Source of the DNA: an uncultured Psychrosphaera sp. | GTDB lineage: Bacteria > Pseudomonadota > Gammaproteobacteria > Enterobacterales > Alteromonadaceae | NCBI RefSeq assembly: GCF_947500655.1 | Contig: NZ_CANMSK010000008.1 | Location: 19,139-83,138, forward strand | Length of the DNA: 64,000 bases | Direction of reading: 5' to 3' | Shown here: positions 13,969 to 59,602 of the stretch, one piece after another | Layout of the letters: each line of letters opens with the position of its first letter | Numbering within the stretch: the stretch's first letter is position 1 | Made by a program: the position numbers and the translations under genes | Notes under the pieces: model-generated | The model's database searches: none | What the model was told of the DNA's origin: nothing | Seen by the model: the letters and a program-made list of their open reading frames with translations, nothing else

Positions 13969-13978
13969 GCTATTTTTT

Positions 13979-21707: not shown

Positions 21708-21744
21708 TCGACTTAGCCAACCGTTAACCACAAGAGAATACATT

Positions 21745-42802: not shown

Positions 42803-42818
42803 TTGACCAATTGGTCAA
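42803..42818. promoter_or_regulatory. Perfect RutR-type box TTGACCAATTGGTCAA
   Basis: 16-bp perfect palindrome identical to the E. coli RutR consensus TTGACCAnnTGGTCAA. It lies 124 nt upstream of the EEP nuclease gene start (42942). Confidence 0.65.
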
Positions 42819-42941
42819 GAAAGTTATTATTAGCGCAATAAAAAATACATCCTAAGACGTTATTATCTGTTCGCTTAACGGCTAAGCCATTAAGGACAAG
42901 AGATGCCTCCTAACTAATTGTGTAAATAAGCGAGTAAAATA

Positions 42942-43889
42942 ATGACAAAATCAGTTTTAACCCAACTTACACTTTTATTAAGTTTATTAATAACGGCCAA
43001 TACTTTTGCAAAGACGACGGCTGATGCATTAGAAAGTAATTTATCAGACAAGAAGACATTAAAAGTAGCGTCTTGGAATATTGCTTGGTTAAGCTCACAC
43101 AAATACAATGAACGTAAACAAGCGGATTACGATAAGTTATCAGCCTATGCAACAAAACTAAATGCCGATGTTATTGCCTTGCAAGAAGTTGAAAGTGCCG
43201 AGTGGGCAGAAAAAGTATTTGGTGATGATTACGACTTTTACTTTTCAACTCGTGATTGGGTTCAGCGTGTTGGTGTTGCGGTAAAAAAATCATCTGGTTT
43301 GAAGGTAATATCTCAAGAATATAAAGCATTAAATTTAGATCGTGTTCGTAGTGGTATGCAAGTAACGCTTTCTAGAAACAATAAAGAGTTCACTCTATTA
43401 GCTGTGCATTTAAAGTCTGGTTGTTTCACTGACCCGCTTGATAATAAAAGTGTAATGGCAATGGCGGATAAAACAGAAAAAGAAGGTCGCCGTAAAGAAG
43501 CATGTACTTTACTGAGCCAACAAATAGAACCTTTAGAGAAATGGATAGATAATCAAGCAGCTCAAAATAAAGCATACTTAGTATTAGGTGATTTTAATCG
43601 CCGATTTTCACAAGATATTGCACACAAATACGCGGAAAACCAAGGCTTATGGCAAGCACTAAATGATGAAGGCCAAGAAGTACTATGGACACCAACTGCA
43701 ACATTAGATTCAAAATGTTGGGGTGGCTATTATAAAGATTACATTGACCATATAGTGTTCAGTCCTATGGCAAAAACAATGTATATAGATGATTCATTTG
43801 AGCAATTAGTATTTGATGAAAAATATACCAGTGAGCTATCTAGAAACTTAAGTGACCACTGCCCAGTTTCAGTTCAATTGGATATGTAA
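42942..43889 (+). CDS. Secreted endonuclease/exonuclease/phosphatase (EEP) family protein
   Basis: Signal peptide plus EEP motifs (VASWNI, ALQEV, LGDFN, C-terminal SDHCPV). Confidence 0.8.
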   Translation: MTKSVLTQLTLLLSLLITANTFAKTTADALESNLSDKKTLKVASWNIAWLSSHKYNERKQADYDKLSAYATKLNADVIALQEVESAEWAEKVFGDDYDFYFSTRDWVQRVGVAVKKSSGLKVISQEYKALNLDRVRSGMQVTLSRNNKEFTLLAVHLKSGCFTDPLDNKSVMAMADKTEKEGRRKEACTLLSQQIEPLEKWIDNQAAQNKAYLVLGDFNRRFSQDIAHKYAENQGLWQALNDEGQEVLWTPTATLDSKCWGGYYKDYIDHIVFSPMAKTMYIDDSFEQLVFDEKYTSELSRNLSDHCPVSVQLDM

Positions 43890-43941
43890 TAGCATTTAGC
43901 AAAAATGGTATTACAACAAAACCTACAATTAAGGAATTGTG

Positions 43942-44112
43942 ATGGTCGAATTATTAGTAGCACTGGTAACAGGTGCTTTAGTCGGAGTGTTATTCTCTTT
44001 ATTTAAATTGCCCTTACCTGCCCCGCCTGTTTTGTCGGGTATCGTAGGTATTTTCGGGATTTATTTAGGGGGCGTTGGTTATCAGTGGATCATTGAGCGA
44101 TTTTCTAGTTAA
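43942..44112 (+). CDS. XapX-like (DUF1427-type) small membrane protein, 56 aa, absent from the ORF track
   Basis: Hand translation gives MVELLVALVTGALVGVLFSLFKLPLPAPPVLSGIVGIFGIYLGGVGYQWIIERFSS. AAGGAA lies 5 nt before the ATG. It has two hydrophobic helices and a position next to a purine nucleoside phosphorylase, as for XapX-type proteins. Confidence 0.6.
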   Translation: MVELLVALVTGALVGVLFSLFKLPLPAPPVLSGIVGIFGIYLGGVGYQWIIERFSS

Positions 44113-44303
44113 AAGCTCGTATACATTGACTAAACCACTTACTAAAATCGTTTACTTTGTTTATAGTAAACAACCAAACCAAGTTTAAACAGCTTATAAT
44201 TTTAATTAAATTGTCAGTAAAAAATCCTTGATAGCAGACCGTAATATCTCAGTCTGGCTTGAAACTTACTGAGTTATACTTCTTAACAAAAAGGTTAACT
44301 CTT

Positions 44304-45008
44304 ATGTCTACAGCACATATTGAAGCCCAAATGGGCGATTTCGCAGAAACGGTATTAATGCCGGGCGATCCTCTTAGAGCAAAATTTATTGCCGAAAATT
44401 TCCTAGATGACGCTAAATGCGTAACTCGCGTTCGTAATATGTTTGGTTATACCGGCACTTACAAAGGTAAACGCATCTCGGTTATGGGTTCTGGAATGGG
44501 TATTCCTAGCGTATCTATTTATGCAACAGAACTTTATAAAGATTACGGCGTAGAAGAAATTATTCGTATTGGCTCATGTGGCGCAGTACGTGATGACATT
44601 AAAGTACGCGATATTGTTATTGGTATGGCAGCAAGTACAGACTCAAATGTAAATCGTCAACGTTTAGGTAATGTAGATTTTGCCGCTTGCGCTGACTTTT
44701 CTTTATTAAAAAAAGTAGTCGACACTGCTGAAAAGTTAAATACACCAGTTCGTGTTGGTAACATTTTCACTGCCGATTTGTTTTATACGCCAAATCCAGA
44801 AATGTTTGCTCAAATGGAAAAATACGGCATGTTAGCAGTAGAAATGGAAGCGGCAGGTCTTTACGGTGTTGCTGCTGAATATGGTAAAAAAGCGTTAACG
44901 GTATTAACCGTAAGCGACCATATTAAAACAGGTGAAGTAACCACTGCTGACGAACGTGAAACCACGTTTAAAGATATGATGGAACTAACGTTAGAAAGTA
45001 TTCTATAA
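44304..45008 (+). CDS. deoD: Purine nucleoside phosphorylase DeoD-type
   Basis: [34 protein letters not shown]... is colinear with E. coli DeoD. The ATG at 44304 is preferred over the ORF-track start at 44259. Confidence 0.93.
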
Positions 45009-45030
45009 CGTTAGTTATACACACATAAAC

Positions 45031-45060
45031 AAAAGGGTTAACAAATGTTAACCCTTTTTT
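45031..45060. terminator. Bidirectional terminator between deoD and deoB
   Basis: aaaa-gggttaac-aaat-gttaaccc-tttttt. Confidence 0.8.
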
Positions 45061-45091
45061 AATGCTCGGAATTTGTTATCTAACTTAAGCT

Positions 45092-46306
45092 TTATTTAAA
45101 GTTTAATTCCGTTAAAAAGCTAGTACCATAATCCATATCTTCAACTTTGAACAATTCTGCTATTGTTTGTCCCAAATCTGCAAAGGTTTTACGCTCGCCT
45201 AAGTCAACATCACCAATATTATGGTGATAAGCCAACATAGGAACATACTCACGAGTATGATCACTGCCTGGCCACGTAGGATCGCAACCATGATCGGCAG
45301 TTAATAATAAAATATCCTCATCACCCATAGCGGCATACACTTCTGGTAATCTAGCATCAAACGCTTCTAATTCTTTCGCATAACCAACTGGGTTACGTCT
45401 GTGGCCAAAATCTTGGTCAAAGTTAACTAAGTTAGTAAAAATCAACGTATTGTCATTGGCTGTTTTTATATGCTTTATGCTGGCATCTAACAAGGCATCT
45501 AAACCAGTAGCCTTAGTCTTTTCACTGATACCTTGATGAGCAAATATATCCGCTATTTTACCTACGCTTATTACGTGAGTACCTGCATCTGCTATTTTAT
45601 CTAATACCGTTGGCGCAGGTGGCAATACTGAATAATCACGACGATTACCCGTTCTGGCAAATTCAGCTGGTGTTTCACCAATAAATGGTCTGGCAATAAC
45701 ACGGCCTATATTTAAATCGTCCAACTGCTCTCTAACAATTTCACAATACTTATATAAATTGTCGAGACCAAAATGGGTTTCGTGTGCAGCAATTTGGAAA
45801 ACACTATCGCCTGAGGTGTAACAAATAGGTAAGCCTGTTTTGATATGCTCTTCACCTAATCGTTCTAAAATTGTAGTACCGGATGCATGGCAGTTACCTA
45901 ACATACCATCAAAGCCAGTTGCTTTATTTATCTTGTCAATTAAGTCGCTAGGAAATGAGTTTTCTTTATCAAGGAAATAACCCCAATCAAATAATACTGG
46001 CACACCTGCCATTTCCCAGTGACCACTAGGCGTGTCTTTACCTGTGCTGATCTCGCGCGCGTAACCATAAGCGCCTTTACTAGCCATGCCACCTTTATGT
46101 GGCACTTCAATATTGGATGCACCTTTACATGCATCAAATAATCCTAATGCAGCTAAATTAGGTAAATTTATCTCATTGCCTGTTTCATCTAAATAGGCTT
46201 TAGCTAAATTTGCTAAGGTATTTGCCCCAACATCACCAAAGCTTTCAGCGTCGGGTGCGTACCCAATACCAAAACTATCCATTACTAATATTATTGCTTT
46301 AGACAT
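45092..46306 (-). CDS. deoB: Phosphopentomutase
   Basis: [25 protein letters not shown]... and [20 protein letters not shown] are DeoB signatures. Confidence 0.95.
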
Positions 46307-46365
46307 ATTGAGCCCTATTCGATGTATAAATCGAAATAATTAATCTATAAACTAGGTATAAAAAC

Positions 46366-46381
46366 ATGACCACATGGTCAA
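46366..46381. promoter_or_regulatory. RutR-type box ATGACCACATGGTCAA
   Basis: Lies 60 nt upstream of deoB (start 46306) and ~183 nt upstream of divergent udk. It matches the RutR consensus at 15/16 positions counting the nn spacer as free. Confidence 0.55.
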
Positions 46382-46563
46382 CTTGTGTTAATTTATCATC
46401 ATTTGAAATTAGGGTAAACGATGATATTAAGATCACAGCAATAACAATTGTCGCTGTGTGAAAAATCATTTCCTAAATTGCACTTATATCATTTGGCTTT
46501 TTAGATTAATTTGCTAGTCTATGCTCCGAATTTTATGAACCTGCGTAACCAACAGGCAAGACA

Positions 46564-47205
46564 TTGAAACCAACTATAATTACAATTGCAGGTCCGTCTG
46601 CATCAGGCAAAACACTGTTTGCACAAACAATTCATGACGAGTTAATTGAAGAGTTGGGTGAAGGTGGCATATCCATCATATACGAAGATGCCTACTATAG
46701 AGATCAATCTCACCTCTCAATGGAAGAACGTGTTGAAACCAACTACGATCATCCTGATGCGTTTGAACATGACTTGTTAACTGAACATTTAGAAAAGCTA
46801 ACGAGTAACGAAGCAATTCAAAGCCCTGTATATTGTTACAAAACACACACTAGAACCCCTGAGACTGTCGCTTTCGCTCCAACTAAGATCATTTTGGTTG
46901 AAGGTATTTTATTGCTATCTAATAAAAAGCTCAGAGAGCAGTTTGATATTAAAGTGTATATGGATACACCGTTGGATATTTGTTTAATTCGTAGAATTAA
47001 ACGAGATATTGTAGAACGCCAACGTAGTGTTGAGTCAGTTACTAACCAATATTTAGAAACCGTAAGACCTATGTACCATCAGTACATTGAACCTTCCAAA
47101 GCTTGGGCTGACATTGTCGTCACAAGAGGCGGGAAAAATAGAATGGCGATTGAAGTGATAAAAGCAAAAATCCGTCAAATTTCACAACTACCACCACAAA
47201 AATAA
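46564..47205 (+). CDS. udk: Uridine kinase
   Basis: P-loop [10 protein letters not shown] and Udk-like body. It has an apparent TTG start. Confidence 0.88.
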
Positions 47206-47220
47206 TTAAAAAGGGTGCTC

Positions 47221-48468
47221 ATGGAATTATCAATGCTTAGAGGTTTAGTAGGGATTGTAGCGTTACTCGTTATCGCCTACACCTTATCAGACGGTAAAAA
47301 ACAAATTAACTATCGTACTGTAGGATTCGCTTTTGCGGTTCAGCTTTTACTTGGTGCCTTTGTTTTGTACCTGCCATTTGGTAAAGACGTTTTATTGTCT
47401 ATTACTGGTGGCGTTCAAGGTGTCATCGATAGCGCTAAAGAAGGTATCAACTTCTTGTTTGGTGGCTTAGGCACAGACGCCATGTACAGCAACGGCGTTG
47501 GCTTTGTATTTGCTATCCGTGTTTTACCTAACATTATCTTTTTCTCATCTTTAATCGCAGTTCTTTATTATTTAGGCGTTATGCAATGGGTAATAAAAAT
47601 CATTGGCGGTGGATTACAAAAATTATTAAAAACCAGTAAAGCAGAGTCACTTTCTGCCACTGCAAATATTTTTGTTGGTCAAACGGAAGCGCCATTAGTT
47701 GTACGCCCTTATATTGCCAAAATGACCCAATCAGAATTATTTGCCATTATGGTTGGTGGTTTAGCTTCAGTTGCTGGTTCAGTTATGGTCGGTTATGCCG
47801 GACTTGGCATTGAACTAAAATATCTAATCGCCGCCTCTTTTATGGCAGCCCCTGGTGGTTTATTAATGGCGAAAATTATTTGTCCTGAAAAAGAACCTGA
47901 AAGAATAATAGAAGAATCAGTCGAAATTGAAAAATTTGACGAAAACAAACCAGCAAATGTCATTGACGCTGCAGCATCTGGTGCGGCATCAGGCCTTAAA
48001 TTAGCAGTAAATGTTGGTGCTATGTTATTAGCCTTTATTGCCTTAATTGCTTTGTTTAATACCATTGTTGGCGGCATATCGAGCATGTTTGGTTTTGAAG
48101 GCATTACCATCGAATTTATTCTTGGTTACCTATTTGCACCATTTGCCTTTATCGTCGGCGTACCATTTGAAGAAATGTTACAAGCGGGTAGTTTTATTGG
48201 TCAAAAAATAGTGATTAATGAATTTTTTGCCTACACCAACTTTGTCGATGTTAAAGGTGCATTATCACCAGTAACACAAGTAATTATTACCTTTGCGTTA
48301 TGTGGTTTTGCTAACTTATCGTCTATCGCTATTTTACTTGGTGGTATTGGTTCTATGGCGCCGAGTCGTCGTCCAGATATCGCAAGACTTGGTATGCGCG
48401 CTATGATTGCCGCAACATTAGCTAACCTCATGAGTGCCGCAATAGCTGGCTTCTTTTTCGCCCTTTAG
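47221..48468 (+). CDS. nupC: NupC/CNT-family nucleoside:cation symporter
   Basis: Polytopic with CNT motifs ([17 protein letters not shown]; [14 protein letters not shown]). ATG 47221 is preferred over GTG 47215. Confidence 0.9.
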
Positions 48469-48483
48469 GCTAGGACAATTATT

Positions 48484-49257
48484 ATGACTGACTTAAAAGC
48501 AGTAGCACAGCGAGCTTTATCGTTAATGGATTTAACCAGTTTAACCAATACAGAAACCGATGCTGATATTATTAAACTATGTCAGCAAGCAAAATCTCCA
48601 GCTGGCGAAACGGCAGCGATTTGTATTTTCCCAAGGTTTATCCCGTTAGCTAAAAAAGTATTAAAAGCACAACAAACTCCCCATGTAAAAATTGCCACTG
48701 TAACTAATTTTCCTCATGGCAATGACGATTTAGATATAGCCCTTGCTGAAACCAAAGCCGCTGTTGCCTATGGCGCTGATGAAGTCGACTTAGTATTTCC
48801 ATACAAAGCCTTAATGGCTGGTAATGAGAATATTGGTTTTGATATGGTAAAAGTTTGTAAACAAGCTTGTATTGGTAAAGCCAAATTAAAAGTGATCATT
48901 GAAACTGGCGAATTAAAAACACCTGAGTTAATTAAACGAGCAAGTGAAATTGCCATTAACGCCGGGGCTGATTTTATTAAAACATCAACCGGAAAAGTAG
49001 CAGTTAACGCAACGCCTGAAGCAGCAAAGATCATGTTAGAAGTGATTAAAAACAAAAATATAGATGTTGGTTTTAAACCAGCTGGCGGCGTTAAAAACGC
49101 ACAAGATGCTGATGTATATTTATCACTAGCGGATCAAATCCTTGGTGAAGAATGGGCAACAGCTGAGCATTTCCGATTTGGAGCCAGTAGCTTGTTAGCC
49201 AGCCTATTAGATACTTTAGGCCATAAAGTTGATGCTAGTTCATCAAGCGGTTATTAA
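48484..49257 (+). CDS. deoC: Deoxyribose-phosphate aldolase (long, E. coli type)
   Basis: Colinear with E. coli DeoC (MTDLKA...[12 protein letters not shown]...[18 protein letters not shown]...). Confidence 0.95.
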
Positions 49258-49300
49258 TATAAATTAGTACCTTATAAACTAAACAATAAAGAAGCACACC

Positions 49301-49879
49301 ATGGCACAACTTTACTTTTATTATTCGTCAATGAATGCAGGTAAGTCGACGCATTTACTGCAGTCATCGTACAATTACCAAGAACGTAATTTAAATACTG
49401 CAATTTATACAGCTAAAATTGATGATCGTTTCGCCCAAGGTAAAGTTGCTTCCAGACTAGGTATAGATGCCGATGCATTCTTATTTGATGACAATAAAAA
49501 CTTACTGTCTGAAATTGAGCAAATGCACACAGATAAAAAATTAGATTGTGTACTGATTGATGAAGCTCAATTTTTAACCACCGAACACGTTAAACAATTA
49601 ACTGACGTGGTGGATGTATTAAATATTCCAGTGCTAGCTTATGGTATTCGTACCGACTTTTTAGGCCAAACCTTTTCTGGTAGTGCCGCATTATTAGCCT
49701 GGGCTGATAAATTAATTGAATTAAAAACCATTTGTCATTGTGGCCGTAAAGCTAACTTTGTTATTAGACAAGATGCCAACGGCGTTGCTGTAAAAGATGG
49801 CGCACAAGTTGAAGTTGGTGGTAACGAACGTTACGAACCACTTTGCCGAGCTCACTTTAAACAGCTGGTTTGGAATTAA
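49301..49879 (+). CDS. tdk: Thymidine kinase
   Basis: [18 protein letters not shown]-loop and a C-terminal zinc motif (CHCGRKA...CRAH). Confidence 0.93.
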
Positions 49880-49958
49880 TTGAAGCTTGATGTCTTAACA
49901 AAAAGCGAAACACAATCACTTATACCAATTGTATTATTCATACACTAACGGGAAAAAT

Positions 49959-50585
49959 ATGGCCATTTTTGAAAGCACTCACCCACTGGTAAAACATAAA
50001 GTTAGTTTGTTACGTGATATTGATATATCAGTAAAAGCATTCCGCGAATTAGCCAAAGAAGTATCTGTACTACTTACCGTTGAGGCAACACAGCATTTTG
50101 AATTAACTCAGGTTCCACTTACTTGCTGGTCAGGTGATATTAAAGTGCCAATGGTAACAAGTCCGCAACCAACTTTAGTGCCTATTTTACGAGCTGGTTT
50201 AGGCATGTTAGATGGTGCTTTAACTATTTTACCTTGTGCAAAAATAAGTGTGGTTGGCTTACGCCGCGATGAAAAAACCTTAGATCCAGAAACTTACTAC
50301 GAAAACATAATTAACGATATTGAAAGCAGAACAGCGATCATTATTGATCCTATGCTAGCAACTGGTGGCACGGCAGTCTCAACCATAGATTTGCTTAAAA
50401 AATCAGGCTGTAAACATATAGTGGCTTTATTTTTAGTTGCAGCTCCAGAAGGTATTCAAGCATTGGTTGATGTTCATCCAGATGTAGACTTAGTCATAGG
50501 TATGATAGATGAAAAGCTAAATGAAAATGGATATATACTGCCAGGATTAGGCGATGCGGGTGACAAGATATTTGGTACGCTTTAA
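49959..50585 (+). CDS. upp: Uracil phosphoribosyltransferase
   Basis: HPLVKHKVSLLRD..., the PRPP motif IIIDPMLATGGT and C-terminal GLGDAGDKIFGT. The ATG at 49959 is preferred over 49929. Confidence 0.93.
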   Translation: MAIFESTHPLVKHKVSLLRDIDISVKAFRELAKEVSVLLTVEATQHFELTQVPLTCWSGDIKVPMVTSPQPTLVPILRAGLGMLDGALTILPCAKISVVGLRRDEKTLDPETYYENIINDIESRTAIIIDPMLATGGTAVSTIDLLKKSGCKHIVALFLVAAPEGIQALVDVHPDVDLVIGMIDEKLNENGYILPGLGDAGDKIFGTL

Positions 50586-50631
50586 GTTTAAGGTTTAAAG
50601 CTGGAAGGTTTTAAGGCTTGAAGGTAAAAGT

Positions 50632-50667
50632 AATCAGCTGACATTGAATGTTGAAAGTCAGCTGATT
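50632..50667. terminator. Hairpin between convergent upp and deoA
   Basis: aatcagctgac ... gtcagctgatt, an 11-bp perfect stem with a 14-nt loop and no strong T-run. Confidence 0.45.
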
Positions 50668-50693
50668 AAATAACACGATTTATCCGTTAATAT

Positions 50694-52001
50694 TTAATAA
50701 CTATAAATCACTGGCGCTAGCTCTGGTTTAGCATCTGAGAAGCTTAACGCTTGACGATATTGCTCAGCAGCTAACTTAGCGCCAACTTCATCTTTTGCGT
50801 GTACACGTGCAATTACATCGCCTGCTATTACTTTTTCACCTAAAGGTAAAATAGCATCAAACCCAACAGTATGATCAACTGGTTGGCGTGGTGCAGTACG
50901 TCCACCTCCAAGACCAACAACTGACATACCAATATCACGTGTATTCATTTGAGATAAATAACCACTTTGCGTCGCTTTAATATCAACAATCACATTGGCT
51001 TTTTGCATAGCATCCCAAGGTTTGTCTAAGTAATTTTTTGGACCGCCTAGCGCTGCAACCATTTTATCAAACACCTCAGCTGCTTTGCCTGAGTCTAATG
51101 CGTTATTAATTTGTTTCTCTGCTGAGTTAGCATCAAGTGCCAAACCAGAATTAACTAGCATAGCCGTCGCTAGTGACTTCACTACAGTATGCAAACGAGG
51201 GTCAAGGTATTCACCTTTTAAGTACTGAACAGTTTCAAACATTTCTAGCGCATTACCTGCAGTCACACCAAGCACTTGATTCATATCGGTAATAATGGCT
51301 TGGGTTTTAACCCCCGCATTATTGGCAACACTGCTGATACTTTCGGCCAATGCTTTAGCATCTTCTAATGACGTCATCATAGCGCCATTACCAACCTTTA
51401 CATCCATCACTAACGTATCAAGACCTGCCGCTAATTTCTTAGATAAAATAGAGGCGGTGATCAATGGAATAGATTCTACCGTTGAAGTTACATCTCTTAT
51501 TGAATAAAGGCGTTTATCTGCCGGAGCTAAATTGTCAGTTTGCGAAATAATTGCAACACCTAGCTCTTTAACAATTCTTTTAAATTCTGGAATTGTTGGT
51601 TCAACATTAAAACCAGCAATACTTTCTAATTTATCAGAGGTGCCGCCCGTATGACCAAGGCCACGACCTGAGATCATTGGCACGTAACCACCACATGCTG
51701 CAACAATTGCTGCCAGCATAAAGCTAACTTTATCACCAACACCACCAGTTGAATGCTTATCTACGATAGGGCGGTCATAACCTTCCCAACTAAGAACATC
51801 ACCTGAATGCATCATAGATGTGGTAAGCGTCACTTTCTCTTCTGTATTTAAGCTGTTTTGAAAAATAGCCATTGCCATAGCACCAACTTGGGCGTCGGAA
51901 AACGAACCGTCGACTAAGCCATCAACAAAACGCTGAATTTCTTGTGTTTTTAATACTCCACCATCACGTTTTATTCTTATAATATCTTGAGGTAATAGCA
52001 T
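50694..52001 (-). CDS. deoA: Thymidine phosphorylase
   Basis: Colinear with E. coli DeoA (DIIRIKRDGGVL...VDKHSTGGVGDK...). Confidence 0.95.
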   Translation of the reverse strand: MLLPQDIIRIKRDGGVLKTQEIQRFVDGLVDGSFSDAQVGAMAMAIFQNSLNTEEKVTLTTSMMHSGDVLSWEGYDRPIVDKHSTGGVGDKVSFMLAAIVAACGGYVPMISGRGLGHTGGTSDKLESIAGFNVEPTIPEFKRIVKELGVAIISQTDNLAPADKRLYSIRDVTSTVESIPLITASILSKKLAAGLDTLVMDVKVGNGAMMTSLEDAKALAESISSVANNAGVKTQAIITDMNQVLGVTAGNALEMFETVQYLKGEYLDPRLHTVVKSLATAMLVNSGLALDANSAEKQINNALDSGKAAEVFDKMVAALGGPKNYLDKPWDAMQKANVIVDIKATQSGYLSQMNTRDIGMSVVGLGGGRTAPRQPVDHTVGFDAILPLGEKVIAGDVIARVHAKDEVGAKLAAEQYRQALSFSDAKPELAPVIYSY

Positions 52002-52009
52002 ATTTTTCC

Positions 52010-52435
52010 TTAGTTTTCTGACAATTGTTTTGGTGTAAACGCATCTGGTAATAACTCAGACACTGTCCATACTTTTTGTTTATTTTTGTGATTAACCGCT
52101 ATGACTGGAGCATCGCTTGCAAAAAACTCTGAAATAACTTGTCTACAAGCTCCACACGGAGGCGTAACTTCATCTATTTCTGTATAGATAACGATAACTG
52201 TAAACTCTTGCTCACCATTAATAACTGCATTACTAATGCAATTACGTTCCGCACAAACCGTTAAACCGTAAGATGCATTTTCAACATTACAGCCTTTAAC
52301 TATATTGCCACTTTTGGTCAACGCCGCTGCGCCAACATGGAACTTGCTATATGGTGCGTATGCTTTTGTATAAGCATCTTTTGCAGCCTCAATTAACTCA
52401 GCTGGAAGTTCAAATTTAGAGTCATTCATATTCAT
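52010..52435 (-). CDS. cdd: Cytidine deaminase (short homotetrameric type)
   Basis: 141 aa with zinc motifs CAERNCI and PCGACRQ. Confidence 0.9.
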   Translation of the reverse strand: MNMNDSKFELPAELIEAAKDAYTKAYAPYSKFHVGAAALTKSGNIVKGCNVENASYGLTVCAERNCISNAVINGEQEFTVIVIYTEIDEVTPPCGACRQVISEFFASDAPVIAVNHKNKQKVWTVSELLPDAFTPKQLSEN

Positions 52436-52471
52436 TAACCAGTTAATTTATTCATACTTACAATAGCATTG

Positions 52472-52487
52472 TTGACCATTTGGTCAA
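52472..52487. promoter_or_regulatory. RutR-type box TTGACCATTTGGTCAA
   Basis: Both 7-nt arms are perfect. It lies 37 nt upstream of the cdd start codon (52435). Confidence 0.65.
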
Positions 52488-52522
52488 GTAAAATAAAGCA
52501 TGTTTATTTATATTTTTTACAT

Positions 52523-52552
52523 AAAAAAACCGCACTAAATAGTGCGGTTTTT
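52523..52552. terminator. Bidirectional rho-independent terminator downstream of the Oar-like receptor gene
   Basis: aaaaaaa-ccgcact-aaat-agtgcgg-ttttt. Confidence 0.8.
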
Positions 52553-52577
52553 AGGATTACAAATTAATCAAGCTTGA

Positions 52578-55500
52578 TTAGAATTTGTAGTTAACACCAA
52601 CTCTAATTTGCCATAATGACTGCGTTGCAAATGTTGTCTGCTCAGCATTCTCTGAATAAAATTCTTTGAAGTTATAACCTCCAGCATCATTAATTTCAGC
52701 TTCTACTACATTTTGGCCAACATAGTTACCTATGCGTTTAACACCCCACTCGTCGTTCAACATATTACCTAAGTTTTTAATAACAAAGTAAGCACTTGCT
52801 TTATGTCCACCAGTGAACGCTGGTAATTGCTGATCAATTCGGAAGTCTACGCGACTACTCCAATCCGCATTATGAGAGTTACGATCAATAATTTCACCAC
52901 GAGTTAAGTCTTCATCTTTGATAAACTTATTGAATGCATCTAAATCAAAATCACTTTCATACGTTACATTAGGATCATTTTCTAATGGAACATATAGTAA
53001 ATGACGAGTACTTGCATACTCAGTATCTCCAACACTTAAGCTATCAAATGTATAAGACATTGGACGCCCTTGCGTGTATGAACCAAATAAAGAAAAACTT
53101 GTTTTATAATTTTCAATTAGCTCTTTAGAGTAACGTAAATTAAACGTGAAGCGATGCGGTGTTTCATAGTTAGATGTAGAAAGACCCGGATCTTGTGCAT
53201 CTGAAGTCGCAAAACCTGTAAAGTTAGAATACGATACCGAACTAGTCATTGGAGATACATCCTCTGACTTATTGAAAGCGTAACCAATATTGGCATCTAA
53301 TCCAAAATCAAACTCTTTTTTCACTGCTACAGATATAGTAGTAGAACTACCATTTTCTTTAGCATTAGTTAAGATCAAATCACTTTTAAGGTAATTACGA
53401 TATACATCACCATAATCATTTTCGCCAACTACAACATAATCATAAACCGCTCGTCCATCAAATAACTCAGTACGGTTTTCATCATCCCAACTAGCTGCTG
53501 TTATTATTGCGCTGTCTTGTTTTTTTGAATATAACAAGTCTGTTTGGATAACATAATCACCTTCAGTTATATACGTAAAACCGATGTTATATTTCCACTC
53601 AGATGGAATTTCAAAGTTTGGATCAATGGCGTTAACTGATGGTTCGTTACCTAAAGAAGGGTCATTACTTGCAACGTCATCAACTTGAGATTGTAATGCG
53701 TCATAAATAGGACGACCTTCTCCACTAAATAAACCATCTATTGGTGTACCGTCGTCATTTAATAAATATGTGTCTCTAAGATATGTATCAATATTCGTAA
53801 CACCATCGTTTGAATATGAATTTGATAGCCAAACATTTGGATTACCGCCTGAGTAAAGACCAAAACCACCTCGAACTTCTAGGTTATCTTGAACACTCCA
53901 ATTAAATCCAAAGCGTGGTTGGAATAAATCCTTACCATCTAGAGTATGATCATTTCTGTAACCATAACGTTCTTCAAATATTGCATTATAACGAGGAGTA
54001 TCATCACTCGTATACCAATCATAGCGAGCACCTACGACGACTGTTAAATCGATATCGTCAAATACATATTCATCTTGAAGATAAGCTGCATGAGTAGCAA
54101 ATTCAAAACTAGCAGCTGCATCATCAGGGTTATTTGTTCCAGCAGAGTTATTGTAATAAATATCATCGGCTAAACCAGCTTCATAATCATCTAAACTATT
54201 AAAGCGATATTCACCAACTGTATGCTGCATGAATAAGTTAAATACGCTTAAATTCTCATATTCATAACCACCAGAAATAGTATGGTTATCCATGTAGTAT
54301 ATACCTGAGAACTTGGCTGTTTGGCTATCCCAGTTCAACTCATTTGATTGACGAGAGTCATCAGGACCAATATATATTGAATTCCCGTTAATACCTTCAA
54401 TTCGTACTTCACCAAAGCCACTATCAGCATCTATTGAACGTTGTGTATTATCTAGCTTAATTTTACCAATACGAACTTCGGTGCTGAAATCATCAGACCA
54501 GTCAGACCAAAGTGATGCAACCATTGAGTTTAATTCTGCACCTACTTTATAAAAGTGGTTAGATAACGTTACAGTATTATTATAATCGTCTGATTGATCT
54601 ATACGGAAACCATCATTATAGTTATATACAAATGATGCGCGATGATCATCATTAATGTTCCAATCTAACTTAACCAATAATTTCTCATCGTCTACTGGAG
54701 AAGATGCTGGCATACCGCCTGGATCGTAATCGTACACATCTTTAGTTATAGCAATTGCTCTGTCTAAGTCAGCTTGAGAAATTTGATCTTCACCGAACCC
54801 GTTATATTGAAAAATTTGTACACTATCTAGTTTTTCATAAGCAGCATATAAAAATAATTCATCTTCAATTAAAGGTAAACCTATGTCGAACCCAAAACGA
54901 GTTTCAGTGTAATTGCCAGTTTCTACATCTTCACCGTCAATACTATCACCACGTAATTCATCGCTAGACATATCATAGAAAAAACTACCAGTAACTTCAT
55001 TTGTACCAGACTTAGTTACCGCATTAATATTACAACCAGTAAAGCCACCATATTGCACATCAAATGGAGCAAGCTCTACAGTTATTTGGTCCAAGCTACT
55101 GAATGAAAATGGCATACGTACAGTCGGATATCCATTATTATTCAAACCAAAGCTGTCATTCATACGAACGCCATCAACAGTTAAGCTACTATAACGAGGG
55201 TTGCTACCAGCACATAATATAGCTTCTGCACCATTAGCTTCTTCAATGTTAATTCTAGGGTCAATACGCACTATATCTTTAATATCTCTATCAGCAGATG
55301 CTGCATTTTCGATATCTGCTAAATTAAAGTTAGACGCTGGACTAGTAGAACCCATTTCCATTGCACTAATAGGACTAGCAGTAATTTGAATAGTTTCAAT
55401 TGAGCTATTTTCTAGCTTAAAGTTTAATTGTAGAGGCTCACCCAGCTTAATAAAAGCATCATCAATAACTCGATCCTGAAATTTATCAGAATCAACAACT

Positions 55501-55748
55501 ATTTTATAAGGGCCCCCAACACGTAAGCCGTTGGCAGCAAAACCGCCACTTTCATTTACGGTAACAGCTTTGCTTGTACCTGAAGGAATATGAGTAACAG
55601 TTACTATAGTACCTACCGCTGCATTTCCTTGAGGTCCATTTACTACCCCTTTAATTGCAGAGGTTGTTGTATTAGCCATAGCAGCTGTTGATAAACCTAG
55701 AGCTAAGACTACGGCTCCGGCGATTTGTGAAAGACGATGATTTTTCAT
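52578..55748 (-). CDS. Large Oar-like TonB-dependent receptor with N-terminal carboxypeptidase-regulatory-like domain
   Basis: ATG 55748 (AAGGAA RBS) gives the signal peptide MKNHRLSQIAGAVVLALGLSTAAMA. This is followed by a CarboxypepD_reg-like segment (IKGVVNGPQGNAAVGTIVTV...GGPYKIVV), a plug and a ~1000-aa barrel ending in VGVNYKF. The ORF-track start at 55805 is an over-extension. Confidence 0.88.
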   Translation of the reverse strand: MKNHRLSQIAGAVVLALGLSTAAMANTTTSAIKGVVNGPQGNAAVGTIVTVTHIPSGTSKAVTVNESGGFAANGLRVGGPYKIVVDSDKFQDRVIDDAFIKLGEPLQLNFKLENSSIETIQITASPISAMEMGSTSPASNFNLADIENAASADRDIKDIVRIDPRINIEEANGAEAILCAGSNPRYSSLTVDGVRMNDSFGLNNNGYPTVRMPFSFSSLDQITVELAPFDVQYGGFTGCNINAVTKSGTNEVTGSFFYDMSSDELRGDSIDGEDVETGNYTETRFGFDIGLPLIEDELFLYAAYEKLDSVQIFQYNGFGEDQISQADLDRAIAITKDVYDYDPGGMPASSPVDDEKLLVKLDWNINDDHRASFVYNYNDGFRIDQSDDYNNTVTLSNHFYKVGAELNSMVASLWSDWSDDFSTEVRIGKIKLDNTQRSIDADSGFGEVRIEGINGNSIYIGPDDSRQSNELNWDSQTAKFSGIYYMDNHTISGGYEYENLSVFNLFMQHTVGEYRFNSLDDYEAGLADDIYYNNSAGTNNPDDAAASFEFATHAAYLQDEYVFDDIDLTVVVGARYDWYTSDDTPRYNAIFEERYGYRNDHTLDGKDLFQPRFGFNWSVQDNLEVRGGFGLYSGGNPNVWLSNSYSNDGVTNIDTYLRDTYLLNDDGTPIDGLFSGEGRPIYDALQSQVDDVASNDPSLGNEPSVNAIDPNFEIPSEWKYNIGFTYITEGDYVIQTDLLYSKKQDSAIITAASWDDENRTELFDGRAVYDYVVVGENDYGDVYRNYLKSDLILTNAKENGSSTTISVAVKKEFDFGLDANIGYAFNKSEDVSPMTSSVSYSNFTGFATSDAQDPGLSTSNYETPHRFTFNLRYSKELIENYKTSFSLFGSYTQGRPMSYTFDSLSVGDTEYASTRHLLYVPLENDPNVTYESDFDLDAFNKFIKDEDLTRGEIIDRNSHNADWSSRVDFRIDQQLPAFTGGHKASAYFVIKNLGNMLNDEWGVKRIGNYVGQNVVEAEINDAGGYNFKEFYSENAEQTTFATQSLWQIRVGVNYKF

Positions 55749-56100
55749 CTGATTTCCTTGGTTTAAGTTATTAATTTTTTGAATGATTATTATTATAAAA
55801 AGCAAACGGTAAAAAAGTTAACCATTTGCTCTGTTTTTCATTTCGAACGAAATTAAACCAGATTTTTGTGTAAGTTTCATTACAATTGACGACTCTTTTT
55901 ATAAAAGTGTCGTTAATTAGAGATAATTACGGCCAAAACCGCTTGAATAAATAAATTTTATTCATTAAATACATAGGGTTAGATGGAATATAAATTAGTT
56001 CAGTTTATACATGAATTATTTTTCACCTTATACTCTAATTTAACAATATATAGTTTGATTTTTAATCTACAGGTTGTATTTTTTAACCTATAGATAAGTC

Positions 56101-56116
56101 CTGACCTTTTGGTCAG
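56101..56116. promoter_or_regulatory. RutR-type box CTGACCTTTTGGTCAG
   Basis: Palindromic TGACC/GGTCA arms in the 655-nt divergent region between the receptor (-) and the tetR-EEP-phoA unit (+). A further half-site (TTGGTCAA) lies at 56319-56326. Confidence 0.45.
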
Positions 56117-56403
56117 TAAATAATATCCAATATAAACAATACCTTAAAAACCTAACACCTTAAAACGTTCATTAAATATGGCTATAAATCTATAAAACAT
56201 TCACTTTGTTCGTTCAGCTGTCTTTTAAATGTAACTATTACCATTTATAGTAACCTCTTAAAATATTCGAGGTAAGTTTTGCTAACTGTTAAAAGGTAAA
56301 TGCACAAAAACTTACTACTTGGTCAATATTTATAAATATGCATTAAAAAACTTTTCAAATTATGCAGTATTTAATTAGAAGAATTTAGCGTTTGGATGAT
56401 CAC

Positions 56404-57033
56404 ATGGCAGTAAATCAAACTAAAAAAAGCAGTAATATTCGCGTTCAAAGTCAACAAAAGATCCTTATTGCAGCCAGTACTGAATTTGTACTTCAAGGCT
56501 ACAAAGGCGCGACGGTGCAATCTATTGCCGACCGAGCCGAATTACCTAAAGCCAATATTCTTTATTACTTTAAAAACAAAGAAAACATCTACCAAGCGGT
56601 GTTAGAACACACCTTAGAGATGTGGGACCAAGGTATTGGTGATCTTGACCCAGCCGATGGCCCAAAGCTCGCAATAGAAAAATTTATAGATGCCAAGGTA
56701 CGCTTATCTTTTAATCATCCTGAATCTTCAAAAATATATGCAATGGAGATAATCCAAGGCGCACAACATTTAAAAGAATTTGCACGCACCTATTTAAGAC
56801 AGTGGGTTAGAGAAAAAGCTAAGTTATTTCAACAATGGATTGATAATGGCGAAATGCAGGATGTTGACCCAGTACATTTGATATTCCTTATTTGGTCTTC
56901 AACGCAGCATTACGCTGACTTTGAAACTCAAATATTAACCATAATGAACCGAGCGGATTACGAAGATGATGACGTAGAAAATGTTATCAAATTTTTAACC
57001 GACATGATCTTACGTGGTTGCGGGTTGAAATAG
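56404..57033 (+). CDS. TetR-family regulator, RutR/YcdC subfamily (paralog 2, nucleoside cluster)
   Basis: HTH (YKGATVQSIADRAELPKANILYYF) and a RutR-type C-terminal signature (VHLIFLIWSSTQHYADF). ATG at 56404; an alternative TTG lies at 56392. Confidence 0.85.
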   Translation: MAVNQTKKSSNIRVQSQQKILIAASTEFVLQGYKGATVQSIADRAELPKANILYYFKNKENIYQAVLEHTLEMWDQGIGDLDPADGPKLAIEKFIDAKVRLSFNHPESSKIYAMEIIQGAQHLKEFARTYLRQWVREKAKLFQQWIDNGEMQDVDPVHLIFLIWSSTQHYADFETQILTIMNRADYEDDDVENVIKFLTDMILRGCGLK

Positions 57034-57039: not shown

Positions 57040-58260
57040 ATGAAAAACGTCCTTTTAATATCGATACTATTTATGCTGACCACAACTAAATTAGATGCAA
57101 ATGAAATTTATGCTGGTGAAATTAGAGTGGCGACCTTTAATGTCAGTATGGAAGCGACGAACTATGCAAATGCTACCAAAGATAAAAAATCAGACGTATC
57201 GGGTCAAACTCTGGTTAATGCTTTAGCCACAGGTCATCAACAAATTAAAAACATTGCTGAAATTATCCAGCGCGTTAAACCAGATATTATACTGCTGAAT
57301 GAATTCGACAATGCCAATAACAGTAATGTTAATGATCACGCTGCCTTATTAAGCTTTATTAAAGACTATTTGAATCAAAGCCAAAATGGGCAAAAAAGTA
57401 TTGATTATAAATACTTTTATCAAGGGCCTGTAAACACCGGCGTTAATTCAAATCTTGATTTAGATAATAATGGTGAAAAAGGGCAGCTTCCGTCTGACGG
57501 TTATGGATTTGGTCACTTCCCCGGTCATTATGCCATGGCGTTATTATCTAAATACCCAATAAATACAGACAAAATTAGAACCTTCCAACATTTCAAATGG
57601 AAAGACATGCCAAATGCACTCCGCCCTTTTGACCCCGATACTAAGCAGCCTTGGTATAACGACAAGGTTTGGAATGAACTTCGTTTATCTTCAAAGTCAC
57701 ATTGGGATATTCCAGTTAATGTAAATGGAACTGAGTTACATATTTTAGCTAGTCACCCAACACCACCTGTATTTGATGGTAAAGAAGATAGAAACGGCAA
57801 ACGTAACCACGATGAAATTCGCTTTTGGACAAATTATATAACGCCTAAAAATGCATCTTATATTTACGATGATCAAGGTAATAAAGGTGGACTTGTCGGC
57901 GATAAGTCATTTGTAATATTGGGAGATCTCAATGCATCAAATATGGAAGGCTCTGCTATTTATTCAGGTATTGGGGATTTGTTAAATCATCCAAATATCC
58001 AAGATGTGATGCCACAAAGTAACGGCGCACAGAAACATAGCGCTAACAGTAAAAAAAATAAGTTTGCCCAGAATCACACTGCATTTTGGCGCATGAGAGC
58101 AGATTACGTTCTCCCGTCAAAAAATGGTATTGAAGTAAAAGGCAGTGGCGTATTTTGGCCAACCAAACAAGAAGATACATATAGATTAATCAAGGATAGA
58201 AGCGCATCATCGGATCATAGATTGGTCTGGTTAGATTTACGTATTGAATCTACAAACTAA
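57040..58260 (+). CDS. Secreted endonuclease/exonuclease/phosphatase (EEP) family protein
   Basis: Signal peptide plus EEP motifs (VATFNV, ILLNEFD, LGDLNAS, C-terminal SSDHRLVWLDL). It starts 6 nt after the tetR stop. Confidence 0.8.
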   Translation: MKNVLLISILFMLTTTKLDANEIYAGEIRVATFNVSMEATNYANATKDKKSDVSGQTLVNALATGHQQIKNIAEIIQRVKPDIILLNEFDNANNSNVNDHAALLSFIKDYLNQSQNGQKSIDYKYFYQGPVNTGVNSNLDLDNNGEKGQLPSDGYGFGHFPGHYAMALLSKYPINTDKIRTFQHFKWKDMPNALRPFDPDTKQPWYNDKVWNELRLSSKSHWDIPVNVNGTELHILASHPTPPVFDGKEDRNGKRNHDEIRFWTNYITPKNASYIYDDQGNKGGLVGDKSFVILGDLNASNMEGSAIYSGIGDLLNHPNIQDVMPQSNGAQKHSANSKKNKFAQNHTAFWRMRADYVLPSKNGIEVKGSGVFWPTKQEDTYRLIKDRSASSDHRLVWLDLRIESTN

Positions 58261-58309
58261 ATTACCTTTAACGCCCTAATAATTCAGTGTATAAATATTG
58301 GAATATAAA

Positions 58310-59602
58310 ATGAAAAAAATAATTTTAATCGCATGTCTTGCTCTACTGACAAGTGCTTGTAGCAACGAAAGTACAAGCACCGCACCTAAAAATATAATTA
58401 TGGTTGTTGCTGATGGAACAGGACCTTCCTACACCACAGCATATCGTTATTATAATGATGACCCAACAACTGACGAGATTGAAGAAACGGTATTTGACCG
58501 TCACTTAGTTGGCATTGCAAGTACTTATCCTGCAAGGGAGTCTGGTTATATAACTGACTCGGCAGCAGCAGCTACCGCTTTAGCAGCTGGTGTTAAATCT
58601 TATAATGGTGCAATTGGTGTCGATGTTGATAAAAAGCCAGTTGAAACTGTTTTAGAATATGCAAAATTAATCGGTAAAAAAACAGGCGTTGTGGTTACTT
58701 CACAAATCAACCATGCAACGCCTGCCTCATATTTAGCGCATAACGAAAGCCGTAAAAACTATGATGCCATTGCCAACAGTTATATAGATGACGGTATTAA
58801 AGCCGACGTTTATCTTGGTGGCGGTTGGCAATATTTTATCCGTGATGACCGTAATATTGTTGAAGAGTTTAAGCAAGCAGGCTTTCATTACGTAGACAAC
58901 TACGATCAACTAGCTGATATACCAGAGCAACCTTTATTCGGTTTGTTCGACAAAGTAGGTTTACCTTGGGCATTGGATGACACAAAGCACAACCGTTTAT
59001 CTGTTATGACTGAAGCGGCAACTGGGTTGTTAGAAAACGACAAAGGCTTTTTTATGTTAGTTGAAGCTAGCCAAGTTGACTGGGCTGGACATAGTAATGA
59101 CATCGCAGCAGCTATGGGTGAAATGACAGACTTAGCCATTACCATGGAATATTTAGAGCAGTATGTGAAAGATCATCCTGATACTCTAGTTGTAATGACA
59201 GCCGATCACAGCACAGGTGGTTTAACGGTTGCAGCAAATGGTAAATATGAATGGAACCCAGAGTACTTACGTACAATGACCCAATCACCTAGTGCAATCA
59301 CCAAAATATTACTAGATTCAGACATTAACAAAACGTTAGTTGAAGAGTTACTTCACTTTACTATTACTGACGAAGAGTTAGTATTTTTGCAACAAGCTAA
59401 AGTTAAGAAATCATCTGATAAGAAAATTTATAAAGTAGTCAAAGCAATCATTGATCAACGTACTAACACAGGTTGGACAACGGGCGGTCATACAGGTCAT
59501 GACGTTCAAGTATTTGCTATGGGCGCAGGTAGTGAAATGTTCAGAGGCAAAATCGACAACACTGACATTGCCAAGAAAATATTTACATTCTTAGGAAAGT
59601 AA
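58310..59602 (+). CDS. Alkaline phosphatase (PhoA family) lipoprotein
   Basis: Lipobox LLTSAC and the active-site region VVADGTGPS...ITDSAAAATALAAG, with the metal motifs DWAGH and ADHSTGG. Confidence 0.88.
   Translation: MKKIILIACLALLTSACSNESTSTAPKNIIMVVADGTGPSYTTAYRYYNDDPTTDEIEETVFDRHLVGIASTYPARESGYITDSAAAATALAAGVKSYNGAIGVDVDKKPVETVLEYAKLIGKKTGVVVTSQINHATPASYLAHNESRKNYDAIANSYIDDGIKADVYLGGGWQYFIRDDRNIVEEFKQAGFHYVDNYDQLADIPEQPLFGLFDKVGLPWALDDTKHNRLSVMTEAATGLLENDKGFFMLVEASQVDWAGHSNDIAAAMGEMTDLAITMEYLEQYVKDHPDTLVVMTADHSTGGLTVAANGKYEWNPEYLRTMTQSPSAITKILLDSDINKTLVEELLHFTITDEELVFLQQAKVKKSSDKKIYKVVKAIIDQRTNTGWTTGGHTGHDVQVFAMGAGSEMFRGKIDNTDIAKKIFTFLGK

Follow-up and report, generated by a model that had tools for sequence, protein, structure and literature searches.

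A RutR-like regulator as the probable reader of conserved palindromes among nucleoside scavenging genes of Psychrosphaera

Introduction

Which regulator reads the four 16-bp palindromes that stand among the nucleoside scavenging genes of an uncultured Psychrosphaera sp.? The palindromes lie in a 64 kb stretch of its genome (contig NZ_CANMSK010000008.1, positions 19,139 to 83,138; hereafter the window, on whose numbering all coordinates are given), together with a gene encoding a TetR-family protein similar to RutR of Escherichia coli. The original prediction held that a RutR-family repressor has been rewired here to co-ordinate nucleoside uptake, deo/cdd catabolism and exported hydrolases. The comparative analysis presented here makes it probable that the four palindromes are operators of the RutR-family repressor encoded at 56392/56404-57033, while placing its origin and some of its presumed targets in a different light.

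Results

Four palindromic boxes in intergenic DNA

All four predicted 16-mers are present, share one architecture and have a perfect core. A fifth, weaker site lies near the regulator gene (rutR).

42803..42818, box 1: TTGACCAATTGGTCAA, a perfect symmetrical RUT box upstream of the gene for the exported protein EEP1
46366..46381, box 2: ATGACCACATGGTCAA, between the divergent deoB and udk genes
52472..52487, box 3: TTGACCATTTGGTCAA, a perfect symmetrical RUT box upstream of cdd
56101..56116, box 4: CTGACCTTTTGGTCAG, between the gene of a TonB-dependent receptor and the rutR-like TetR gene
56311..56326, weak second box near rutR: cTTACTACTTGGTCAa, two core mismatches, about 67 nucleotides (nt) before TTG 56392

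The consensus of E. coli RutR is printed as TTGACCANNTGGTGAA (Shimada) in PMC2952853, and boxes 1 and 3 are exact matches to its fully symmetrical form, in which sense the predicted identity of two boxes with the E. coli consensus holds. Against the RUT consensus TTGACCAnnTGGTCAA, two boxes are exact, one has a single mismatch and one has a perfect core. A window scan with the consensus TTGACCANNTGGTCAA at up to two mismatches returned three matches versus 0.22 expected (none of 100 shuffles reached three), and the core TGACCNNNNGGTCA (ten fixed bases, TGACC-N4-GGTCA) at up to one mismatch returned only four, all with zero mismatches, versus 1.03 expected. All four boxes are intergenic, and intergenic DNA makes up about 11.5% of the window, which puts the chance of such a placement at about 0.115^4 = 2e-4. 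The observation is thus real and far beyond chance. A strict position weight matrix, derived from 60 perfect and non-redundant boxes, found no additional window site above 8 bits, and in the relevant intergenic DNA the only extra site from a two-mismatch scan was the weak box, at 56312.

Re-measured distances agree with those originally given: box 1 ends 123 nt before the ATG of EEP1 (42942), for box 3 the distance to the start codon of cdd (52435, minus strand) is 36 nt, box 2 is flanked by the deoB start at 46306 (minus strand, 60 nt away) and by udk at 46564, and box 4 is about 290 nt from both flanking start codons. The genes around the boxes, whose original identifications agree with NCBIfam and Pfam, are as follows.

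42942..43889, plus strand: EEP1, exported protein of the EEP (endonuclease/exonuclease/phosphatase) family, 315 amino acids (aa), Sec signal peptide (Pfam PF03372, 2e-11)
43942..44112, plus strand: small membrane open reading frame (ORF) with a XapX domain, 56 aa (TIGR03510, 9e-18, above cut-off), between EEP1 and deoD
44304..45008, plus strand: deoD, purine nucleoside phosphorylase (NF004489, 1.8e-116)
45092..46306, minus strand: deoB, phosphopentomutase (NF003766, 1.3e-168), divergent from udk
46564..50585, plus strand: udk-nupC-deoC-tdk-upp operon, all above NCBIfam cut-offs, intergene gaps of 9-49 nt
50694..52435, minus strand: cdd-deoA operon (NCBIfam), with cdd for cytidine deaminase at 52010-52435 and deoA for thymidine phosphorylase at 50694-52001
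52578..55749, minus strand: Oar-like TonB-dependent receptor with CarboxypepD_reg, Plug and barrel domains
56392..57033, plus strand: RutR-like TetR regulator (paralogue B), conserved ATG at 56404, TetR_N and TetR_C_3 domains
57040..58260, plus strand: EEP2, exported EEP-family phosphodiesterase, 406 aa, signal peptide (PF03372, 5.8e-30)
58298..59602, plus strand: PhoA-type alkaline phosphatase with a lipoprotein-like signal (PF00245, 9.5e-95), last gene of the rutR-EEP2-phoA operon

The products of the udk-upp operon are uridine kinase, the NupC nucleoside transporter, deoxyribose-phosphate aldolase, thymidine kinase and uracil phosphoribosyltransferase. EEP2 begins 6 nt past the regulator stop codon and is separated from phoA by roughly 40 nt; such short gaps, together with the conserved synteny, make it almost certain that the regulator, EEP2 and PhoA share a transcript. 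As predicted, the scanned ORFs of the window contain no rutABCDEFG genes, and no such operon was found among them in an adjacent or divergent position. For two genes we prefer starts other than those of the ORF list: the deoD ATG at 44304, which agrees with the family model (the list has TTG 44259), and, for the TonB receptor, the likely ATG near 55749 with its AAGGAAA ribosome-binding site (the list runs to TTG 55805). The 56-aa XapX frame is missing from the list; in Colwellia-like relatives an adenosine deaminase gene occupies its place (e.g. L122, 6004-7002).

Conservation of the boxes in related genomes

Phylogenetic footprinting was performed with one genome per species on 80 loci from Psychrosphaera, Colwellia, Cognaticolwellia, Pseudocolwellia, Litorilituus, Thalassotalea and Thalassomonas. 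The regulators encoded there are 71-95% identical to the window protein (95% for the P. saromensis SA4-48 counterpart). Nearly all loci preserve the gene order udk-nupC-deoC-tdk(-upp), deoA<-cdd, TonB receptor<-, ->rutR-EEP2-phoA, a synteny that spans Psychrosphaera, Colwellia, Cognaticolwellia, Thalassotalea, Litorilituus and Pseudocolwellia and includes rutR-EEP2-phoA in nearly all 80 loci; Colwellia psychrerythraea strains (L016, L020) have the same locus and boxes. The frequency of the box in the upstream regions was as follows.

cdd, 250 nt upstream: box in 59 of 63 loci at up to one mismatch (45 perfect); 0.2% in shuffled regions
udk, 300 nt upstream: perfect core in 22 of 22 loci; about 0.2% in shuffles
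rutR, 450 nt upstream: box in 24 of 78 loci at up to one mismatch and in 71 of 78 at up to two; about 0.15% in shuffles at up to one
controls, upstream of deoA, nupC, EEP2 and phoA: box in 0-1 loci

Across all loci, 74 perfect cores fall in 212 kb of non-ORF DNA versus 6 in 1.32 Mb of ORF-covered DNA, and in the aligned cdd upstream regions the palindrome is the sole block common to all genera. EEP1 was followed in a metagenome scan of 80 loci: in the about 45 where it is linked to deoD (L081-L127, L140), a box, mostly TTGACCGAATGGTTAA, stands 90-255 nt upstream of EEP1, and no upstream box at up to one mismatch was found for distant EEP1 homologues unlinked to deoD. In metagenome loci the equivalent of box 2 precedes deoB by 55-56 nt and udk by about 200 nt. 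Box 4 keeps its position, with one mismatch, in three other Psychrosphaera, and in four Psychrosphaera the box is followed by a conserved TAATATCCAATATAAACAATA. The weak-box block (56311-56326) is also conserved in four Psychrosphaera, and its counterparts in L025, L033, L039, L042 and L045 are better palindromes about 86-130 nt upstream of rutR. Footprinting in relatives, proposed as a check with the original prediction, thus finds the box retained at cdd, udk and EEP1-deoD and, more weakly, at rutR-EEP2-phoA.

The same conservation bears on the idea that the palindromes are strong -35 elements, small hairpins or terminators, or products of chance rather than protein operators. This idea has some appeal, as TTGACC resembles TTGACA and a terminator scan flagged box 2 (5-bp stem, 4-nt loop). 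On the other hand, the right half-site is no less conserved than the left, though only one half can serve as a -35 element; the boxes lie upstream rather than downstream of genes; and a frequency of 0.2% in shuffles stands against 94-100% observed. The terminator or hairpin version was rejected on a further ground: in about 20 metagenome loci with TTGACCGAATGGTTAA an asymmetric GGTTAA half-site persists without compensation in the other half, so that sequence rather than pairing appears to be under selection, which favours a protein site. We regard an explanation of this kind as very improbable.

Two further observations were made in the related loci. In Colwellia sp. 75C3 and 12G3 (L024, L026) a second copy of a B-type regulator (78-79% identical) adjoins a TonB receptor gene and deoD, and this second locus has several one-mismatch boxes, one about 80 nt upstream of deoD. 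In eight metagenome loci (L098, L104, L106, L108, L114, L120, L122, L125) an extra box, about 1.25-1.55 kb upstream of EEP1, precedes a 330-aa ORF without a Pfam family (L122, 3761-4753). This ORF, which sits directly upstream of EEP1 and has no counterpart in the window, may represent a further regulon member.

Position of the boxes within putative promoters

At three promoters of the window one half-site of the box coincides with a -35-like hexamer. For EEP1 the left half of box 1 (TTGACC) is followed, after 16 nt, by TATTAT, with agreement at 10 of 12 consensus positions. For cdd, on the minus strand, TTGACC of box 3 precedes TG-TATTGT at 16 nt, and for udk the left half of box 2 (ATGACC) is placed 17 nt from an extended -10-like TGtGTTAAT; the gTTGTGaTAATTTATCA adjoining box 2 is conserved in 20 loci. 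A dimer bound to a box on the -35 element and the spacer would cover both, implying repression. In other genera the surroundings differ. The cdd box of Cognaticolwellia and Thalassotalea, for example, follows a -10-like element and precedes the ribosome-binding site, and in Colwellia-like loci the EEP1 box follows a conserved TAGTGTAATGTTGCAA block by about 20 nt. To judge from these sequences, the operator stays while the promoter context changes between genera, and all contexts appear to be of the repressor type. The TAGTGTAATGTTGCAA block itself, found about 20-45 nt upstream of the EEP1 box in metagenome loci L082-L130 and not in Psychrosphaera, may combine a -10 element with the site of a second factor.

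This geometry is relevant to a different possibility, namely that the regulator, once bound to the boxes, does not simply repress but activates transcription, in the manner of E. coli RutR at carAB P1, or has a dual role. Apo-RutR of E. coli is known to activate as well as to repress (PMC4325133); moreover, the distance of box 4 from both of its flanking start codons and the variable position of the box relative to -10-like elements in some genera would be compatible with such a role. It is, however, an unlikely one given the box on the -35 hexamer and spacer at three window promoters and its location between -10-like element and ribosome-binding site in other genera, both of which are repressor geometries, and given that TetR proteins are mostly repressors. 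We therefore retain repression as the favoured mode of action.

Box 4 probably serves as the operator of a distal promoter from which the regulator operon is transcribed, and box 4 and the weak box at 56311-56326 are together likely to be autoregulatory sites for rutR-EEP2-phoA. A search for a Pho-box upstream of the same operon (CTGTCATNNNNCTGTCAT at up to three mismatches) gave 6 matches versus 4.95 expected, none of them in that spacer, and a candidate at about 56216 was dropped with at least four mismatches.

Whether box 4 acts directly on the TonB receptor gene is doubtful in this genome, since the likely promoter of the receptor gene (55821-55792, minus strand, TTAACT-18-TATAAT) is about 290 nt from the box. 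An approximately 130-nt block upstream of the receptor ATG (55790-55925) is nearly invariant in four Psychrosphaera, the remaining spacer being divergent; no Rfam family matched this conserved leader. The leader contains a perfect palindrome, ATTTCGAACGAAAT, at 55840-55853, its centre estimated at about -61 from the likely transcription start, and this palindrome may be the site of another regulator. At the other end of the receptor gene, a GC-rich hairpin (aaaaaccgcactaaatagtgcggttttt, 52530-52556) between its stop codon and box 3 looks like a terminator that would insulate the receptor gene from the cdd promoter; a simple terminator scan left it unflagged.

Sequence features of regulator B

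The protein encoded at 56392/56404-57033 (regulator B) matches PF00440 (TetR_N, 2.6e-10) and PF08362 (TetR_C_3, YcdC-like, 1.9e-46). Its top PDB matches are E. coli RutR entries (3loc, 6z1b, 4x1e; best 1.7e-34), with an identity of 37% to E. coli RutR, and two RutR equivalogs are its best NCBIfam models. By mutagenesis, Nguyen Le Minh et al. (2010) identified K51, L55, Y56 and K61 as the residues through which E. coli RutR contacts its operator (PMC2952853). The window protein reads KANILYYFKNK at this site, and none of the 80 orthologues departs from K, L, Y and K at the four positions, which fits the identical operator consensus.

The uracil pocket of E. coli RutR is described in PMC4325133. 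Seven of its eight residues (equivalents of L74, W77, K101, L134, W167, Q171 and Q179) are retained in the window protein, the eighth being L78; among the orthologues, the L134 equivalent is Gln in 34 of 80. As Gln179 of E. coli RutR binds N1 of uracil (PMC4325133), conservation of its equivalent leads us to infer a free base rather than a nucleoside as the effector. At the position of Leu78, on the other hand, all 80 orthologues have Asp. In E. coli the side chain of Leu78 sterically excludes thymine, and the L78A variant of RutR is thymine-sensitive (PMC4325133). On account of this replacement the effector may be other than plain uracil.

A second RutR paralogue on the purine side of the window

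The window encodes another RutR-like protein, 40% identical to regulator B. The neighbours of this paralogue A are genes for malate synthase G (glcB), a PuuD-type urate oxidase, a guanine-deaminase-like amidohydrolase and allantoicase as well as xdhCBA. The more distant upstream genes encode urease, permeases, a NUP purine-nucleoside permease, a TonB receptor and a CECR1-type adenosine deaminase. The features of this part of the window are listed below.

10756-19000: purine nucleoside scavenging cluster, including a xanthine/uracil permease (minus strand)
12282-12295: palindrome of the TGACAC type (TGACAC-N2-GTGTCA), cTTGACACTTATGTCAAt
12370-12383: palindrome of the TGACAC type, TGACACTTGTGATA
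12460-13968: CECR1-type adenosine deaminase
13979-14968: 329-aa protein, no Pfam family
15159-15172: palindrome of the TGACAC type, cTTGACACTTGAGTCAAc
15279-17768: TonB-dependent receptor of the purine side
17900-19000: NUP purine nucleoside permease
26054-26680, minus strand: RutR paralogue A, TetR_N and TetR_C_3 (1.5e-48)
39122-39135: palindrome of the TGACAC type, gCTGACACAAGTGTCAGc, at the xdhA start

The intergenic DNA on the purine side of the window contains TGACAC palindromes and no TGACC box, and that on the nucleoside side contains TGACC boxes only. By count the TGACAC pattern is not above chance in the window; every good copy is intergenic. The order of add, the gene of the 329-aa protein, TonB receptor and NUP is conserved in three related loci (L163-L165), and TGACAC boxes were found between xdhA and add in L163 (TGACACAAGTGTCC) and upstream of a TonB receptor in L165 (ccTGACACCAGTGTCAgg). 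L161 and L162, which stop short of the xdhA promoter, have one TGACAC box only, in an unrelated spacer, and Pseudoalteromonas sp. MMG010 (L164) has a canonical cTTGACCGTTTGGTCAg between xdhA and a permease. All 121 orthologues of paralogue A have Arg and His at the positions of K51 and L55, and Asn at that of Leu78.

These data allow one to weigh the alternative that the TGACC boxes are bound by paralogue A (26054-26680), or by A and B interchangeably, so that purine and nucleoside catabolism would form one regulon without the 56404 gene as its specific regulator. Both proteins have the same pair of domains at 40% identity, and the site in Pseudoalteromonas sp. MMG010 illustrates that canonical boxes can serve purine genes elsewhere. 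Yet Arg/His in 121 of 121 A-type proteins against K/L in 80 of 80 B-type proteins, the separation of the two box types between the two sides of the window, and the physical linkage of gene B to box-bearing promoters in about 80 genomes all speak for regulator B, and we assign a low probability to a role of paralogue A at these sites. The sequence pattern is rather suggestive of paralogues that read different boxes, with the nucleoside-side boxes belonging to the 56404 gene.

In the urease region of the same side (ureB 21616-22086, ureC 22089-23792), an Rfam scan of the whole window gave an antisense match to 5_ureB_sRNA (106.7 bits, 22239-22524, minus strand), which probably reflects conservation of the coding sequence; no match fell within 40-61 kb.

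Function of the exported EEP proteins

Export signals are visible in the translated N-termini of EEP1, EEP2 and PhoA, by which all three are predicted to be exported. The assignment of the EEP proteins as nucleases, part of the original prediction, fared less well. NCBIfam nuclease models gave only sub-threshold scores (19-22 bits for ExeM/NucH versus a cut-off of 300, 33 versus 99 for xth, 32 versus 185 for MnuA), neither phmmer nor profile searches found PDB sequence relatives of EEP1 or EEP2, and the source names of EEP2 homologues are uninformative on function. A Foldseek search with the AlphaFold2 (AF2) model of EEP2 (predicted template modelling score, pTM, 0.84) recovered the generic EEP fold only, with uncharacterised EEPs, sphingomyelinases, TDP2, APE1 and nocturnin about equal (TM-scores of 0.33-0.47, normalised to the EEP2 query). 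A role as phosphodiesterases acting on nucleic acids or nucleotides best fits the neighbouring genes, and it is this context that suggests it.

Discussion

A model of the regulon and the points that weigh against it

The following mechanism would account for these observations. In its ligand-free form, a dimer of regulator B would bind TTGACCAnnTGGTCAA. At EEP1-xapX-deoD, udk-nupC-deoC-tdk-upp and cdd-deoA, where the box takes up the -35 hexamer with one half-site and part of the spacer with the other, the bound repressor would exclude RNA polymerase; box 2 would probably act on the divergent deoB as well, and box 4 with the weak proximal box would provide negative autoregulation of rutR-EEP2-phoA. 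A free pyrimidine base arising from nucleoside breakdown would then probably stack between Trp78 and Trp168 and release the repressor. Uracil is a candidate for this base, and with Asp in place of Leu78 the pocket could accept thymine or another base as well. Loss of the repressor from the DNA would induce the exported phosphodiesterases and phosphatase, NupC uptake, Deo/Cdd catabolism and the salvage kinases together, the whole amounting to a product-induced feed-forward loop.

Several points weigh against this model. Regulator B falls below both NCBIfam RutR equivalog cut-offs (TIGR03613, 165.3 bits versus 368; PRK15008, 143.8 versus 230) and, from its sequence, is best described as RutR-like and not as a certified RutR orthologue. 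The presence of a second RutR paralogue in the window means that the same boxes could in principle be bound by another protein. The promoter elements are consensus matches only, and our reading of the sequence gave no convincing -10 element for deoB, nor for a promoter at box 4 toward the TonB receptor. The autoregulatory rutR box is poorly kept beyond a minority of loci (24/78 at up to one mismatch), and the box counts as a whole concern orthologous sites in related genomes, which are hence not independent events. Finally, by the NCBIfam, PDB and Foldseek searches the EEP proteins are not assignable to nucleases over other phosphodiesterases.

On balance, the proposal of a RutR-family repressor that co-ordinates uptake, deo/cdd catabolism and exported hydrolases is supported computationally by footprinting, contact residues and promoter overlap. 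It needs qualification as regards the novelty of the regulon, which for the most part was predicted earlier, the effector, which may not be plain uracil, the identity of the EEP proteins as nucleases, the control of the TonB receptor, and the notion of rewiring. Because a second RutR paralogue sits by purine-catabolism genes with a different box, the history of the system is better described as duplication and specialisation, with regulator B as the specialised paralogue.

Relation to known systems

RutR-type control of nucleoside catabolism in this part of the tree is already published as an in-silico prediction. The RutR regulons that Leyn et al. (2016, Microb Genom; RegPrecise) derived for 68 proteobacterial genomes include five in 'Other Alteromonadales' (Fig. 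S2, PMC5343134). The predicted targets in their Table S3 (genomes/taxa) include cdd (11/3), deoA (10/3), deoC (10/2), upp (9/3), deoD (7/1), add (5/2), deoB, udk and nupX (3/1 each), tsx, and two TonB-dependent transporters, omp1 and omp2 (2/1 each), along with xdhABC, guaD, pucL, allA and allC; no nuclease, alkaline phosphatase or tdk is entered there, and the main text treats RutR solely as a regulator of pyrimidine degradation (PMC5343134). The gene content, the boxes and an adjacent rutR homologue all recur in our window, and the xdhABC, guaD, pucL, allA and allC entries match its purine side. However, the taxon of each target is not given in Table S3, so that equating that regulog with the present regulon is our own reading; nor were two paralogue clades or box variants separated, and Psychrosphaera was outside the genome set. 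New to this picture are EEP and PhoA as regulon members, the replacement of Leu78 by Asp, and the inclusion of Psychrosphaera. A literature search found no paper naming RutR together with Colwellia, Pseudoalteromonas or extracellular DNA.

With E. coli RutR (YcdC) the system shares the TetR_N and TetR_C_3 pair, an identical 16-bp palindrome consensus, all four DNA-contact residues and seven uracil-pocket residues including the two stacking Trp, and, as is likely here from the position of the boxes, autoregulation. It differs in its targets, which are predicted to be nucleoside uptake, catabolism and salvage genes with exported hydrolases rather than rutABCDEFG or carAB, in having no adjacent rut operon and in the Asp that replaces Leu78 in 80 of 80 orthologues.

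In E. coli and Vibrio, CytR/DeoR likewise bring this functional gene set (deo, cdd, udp, nupC, tsx) under a single metabolite-responsive repressor. Vibrio also links nucleoside scavenging to extracellular nucleases. For nucleoside utilisation in Shewanella, a Crp-family 'DeoR*' was named in a 2011 study (PMC3223726), to which HexR was added in 2016 (PMC5343134). Unlike these LacI, DeoR, RpiR and Crp proteins, the regulator considered here is a TetR protein with a different operator. No gene for a LacI- or DeoR-family regulator was found in 39-61 kb, where the TetR/RutR-like gene is the sole regulator gene found (CytR/DeoR operators were not searched for). The present system is thus a non-orthologous replacement of CytR/DeoR rather than a member of that group.

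The occurrence of several RutR-family paralogues per genome, each with its own regulog, has a parallel in the PydR/RutR sets of Pseudomonas; multiple paralogous regulogs were reported in Pseudomonadaceae, with 20 regulons in 8 genomes (Fig. S2, PMC5343134). PydR of Pseudomonas putida also lacks Leu at the Leu78 position, having Lys, and the authors suggest that thymine could be admitted (PMC4325133). The proteins described here have Asp (B) or Asn (A) instead. The targets of PydR, the pydXAB genes of reductive pyrimidine degradation, are not present here.

Biological implications

Seawater contains a large labile pool of phosphorus, nitrogen and carbon in the form of dissolved DNA, RNA and nucleosides, and a rapid response to pools of this kind is typical of Colwelliaceae. 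Since the regulon had in the main been predicted in silico and is extended here only a little, the immediate value of the finding is moderate. Through a single small-molecule switch, the exported phosphodiesterases and phosphatase may be coupled to nucleoside uptake and catabolism, and one repressor with one 16-bp box would offer a simple, testable handle on bacterial investment in nucleic-acid scavenging.

The clade of regulator B is specific to Colwelliaceae and Psychrosphaera, and a broader scheme, which we put forward tentatively as a possibility well short of even likelihood, is that two orthogonal RutR paralogues divide nucleic-acid salvage in these bacteria. Clade B, with the DNA-reading residues of E. 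coli RutR, TGACCA boxes and Asp at Leu78, would sense a base besides or instead of uracil (e.g. thymine or cytosine) and drive a path from secreted EEPs acting on extracellular DNA or RNA, through the lipoprotein PhoA, to the TonB receptor and NupC and on to Deo/Cdd. Clade A, with Arg and His in the recognition helix, TGACAC boxes and Asn at Leu78, would control purine nucleoside uptake and the catabolism of xanthine, urate, allantoin and urea. If true, this scheme would represent a natural re-specification of both operator and ligand after duplication of a TetR protein, and a regulator devoted, in marine heterotrophs, to the scavenging of nucleic acids from outside the cell. The two-paralogue arrangement would then be a compact natural system in which to follow how the operator and ligand specificity of TetR proteins changes.

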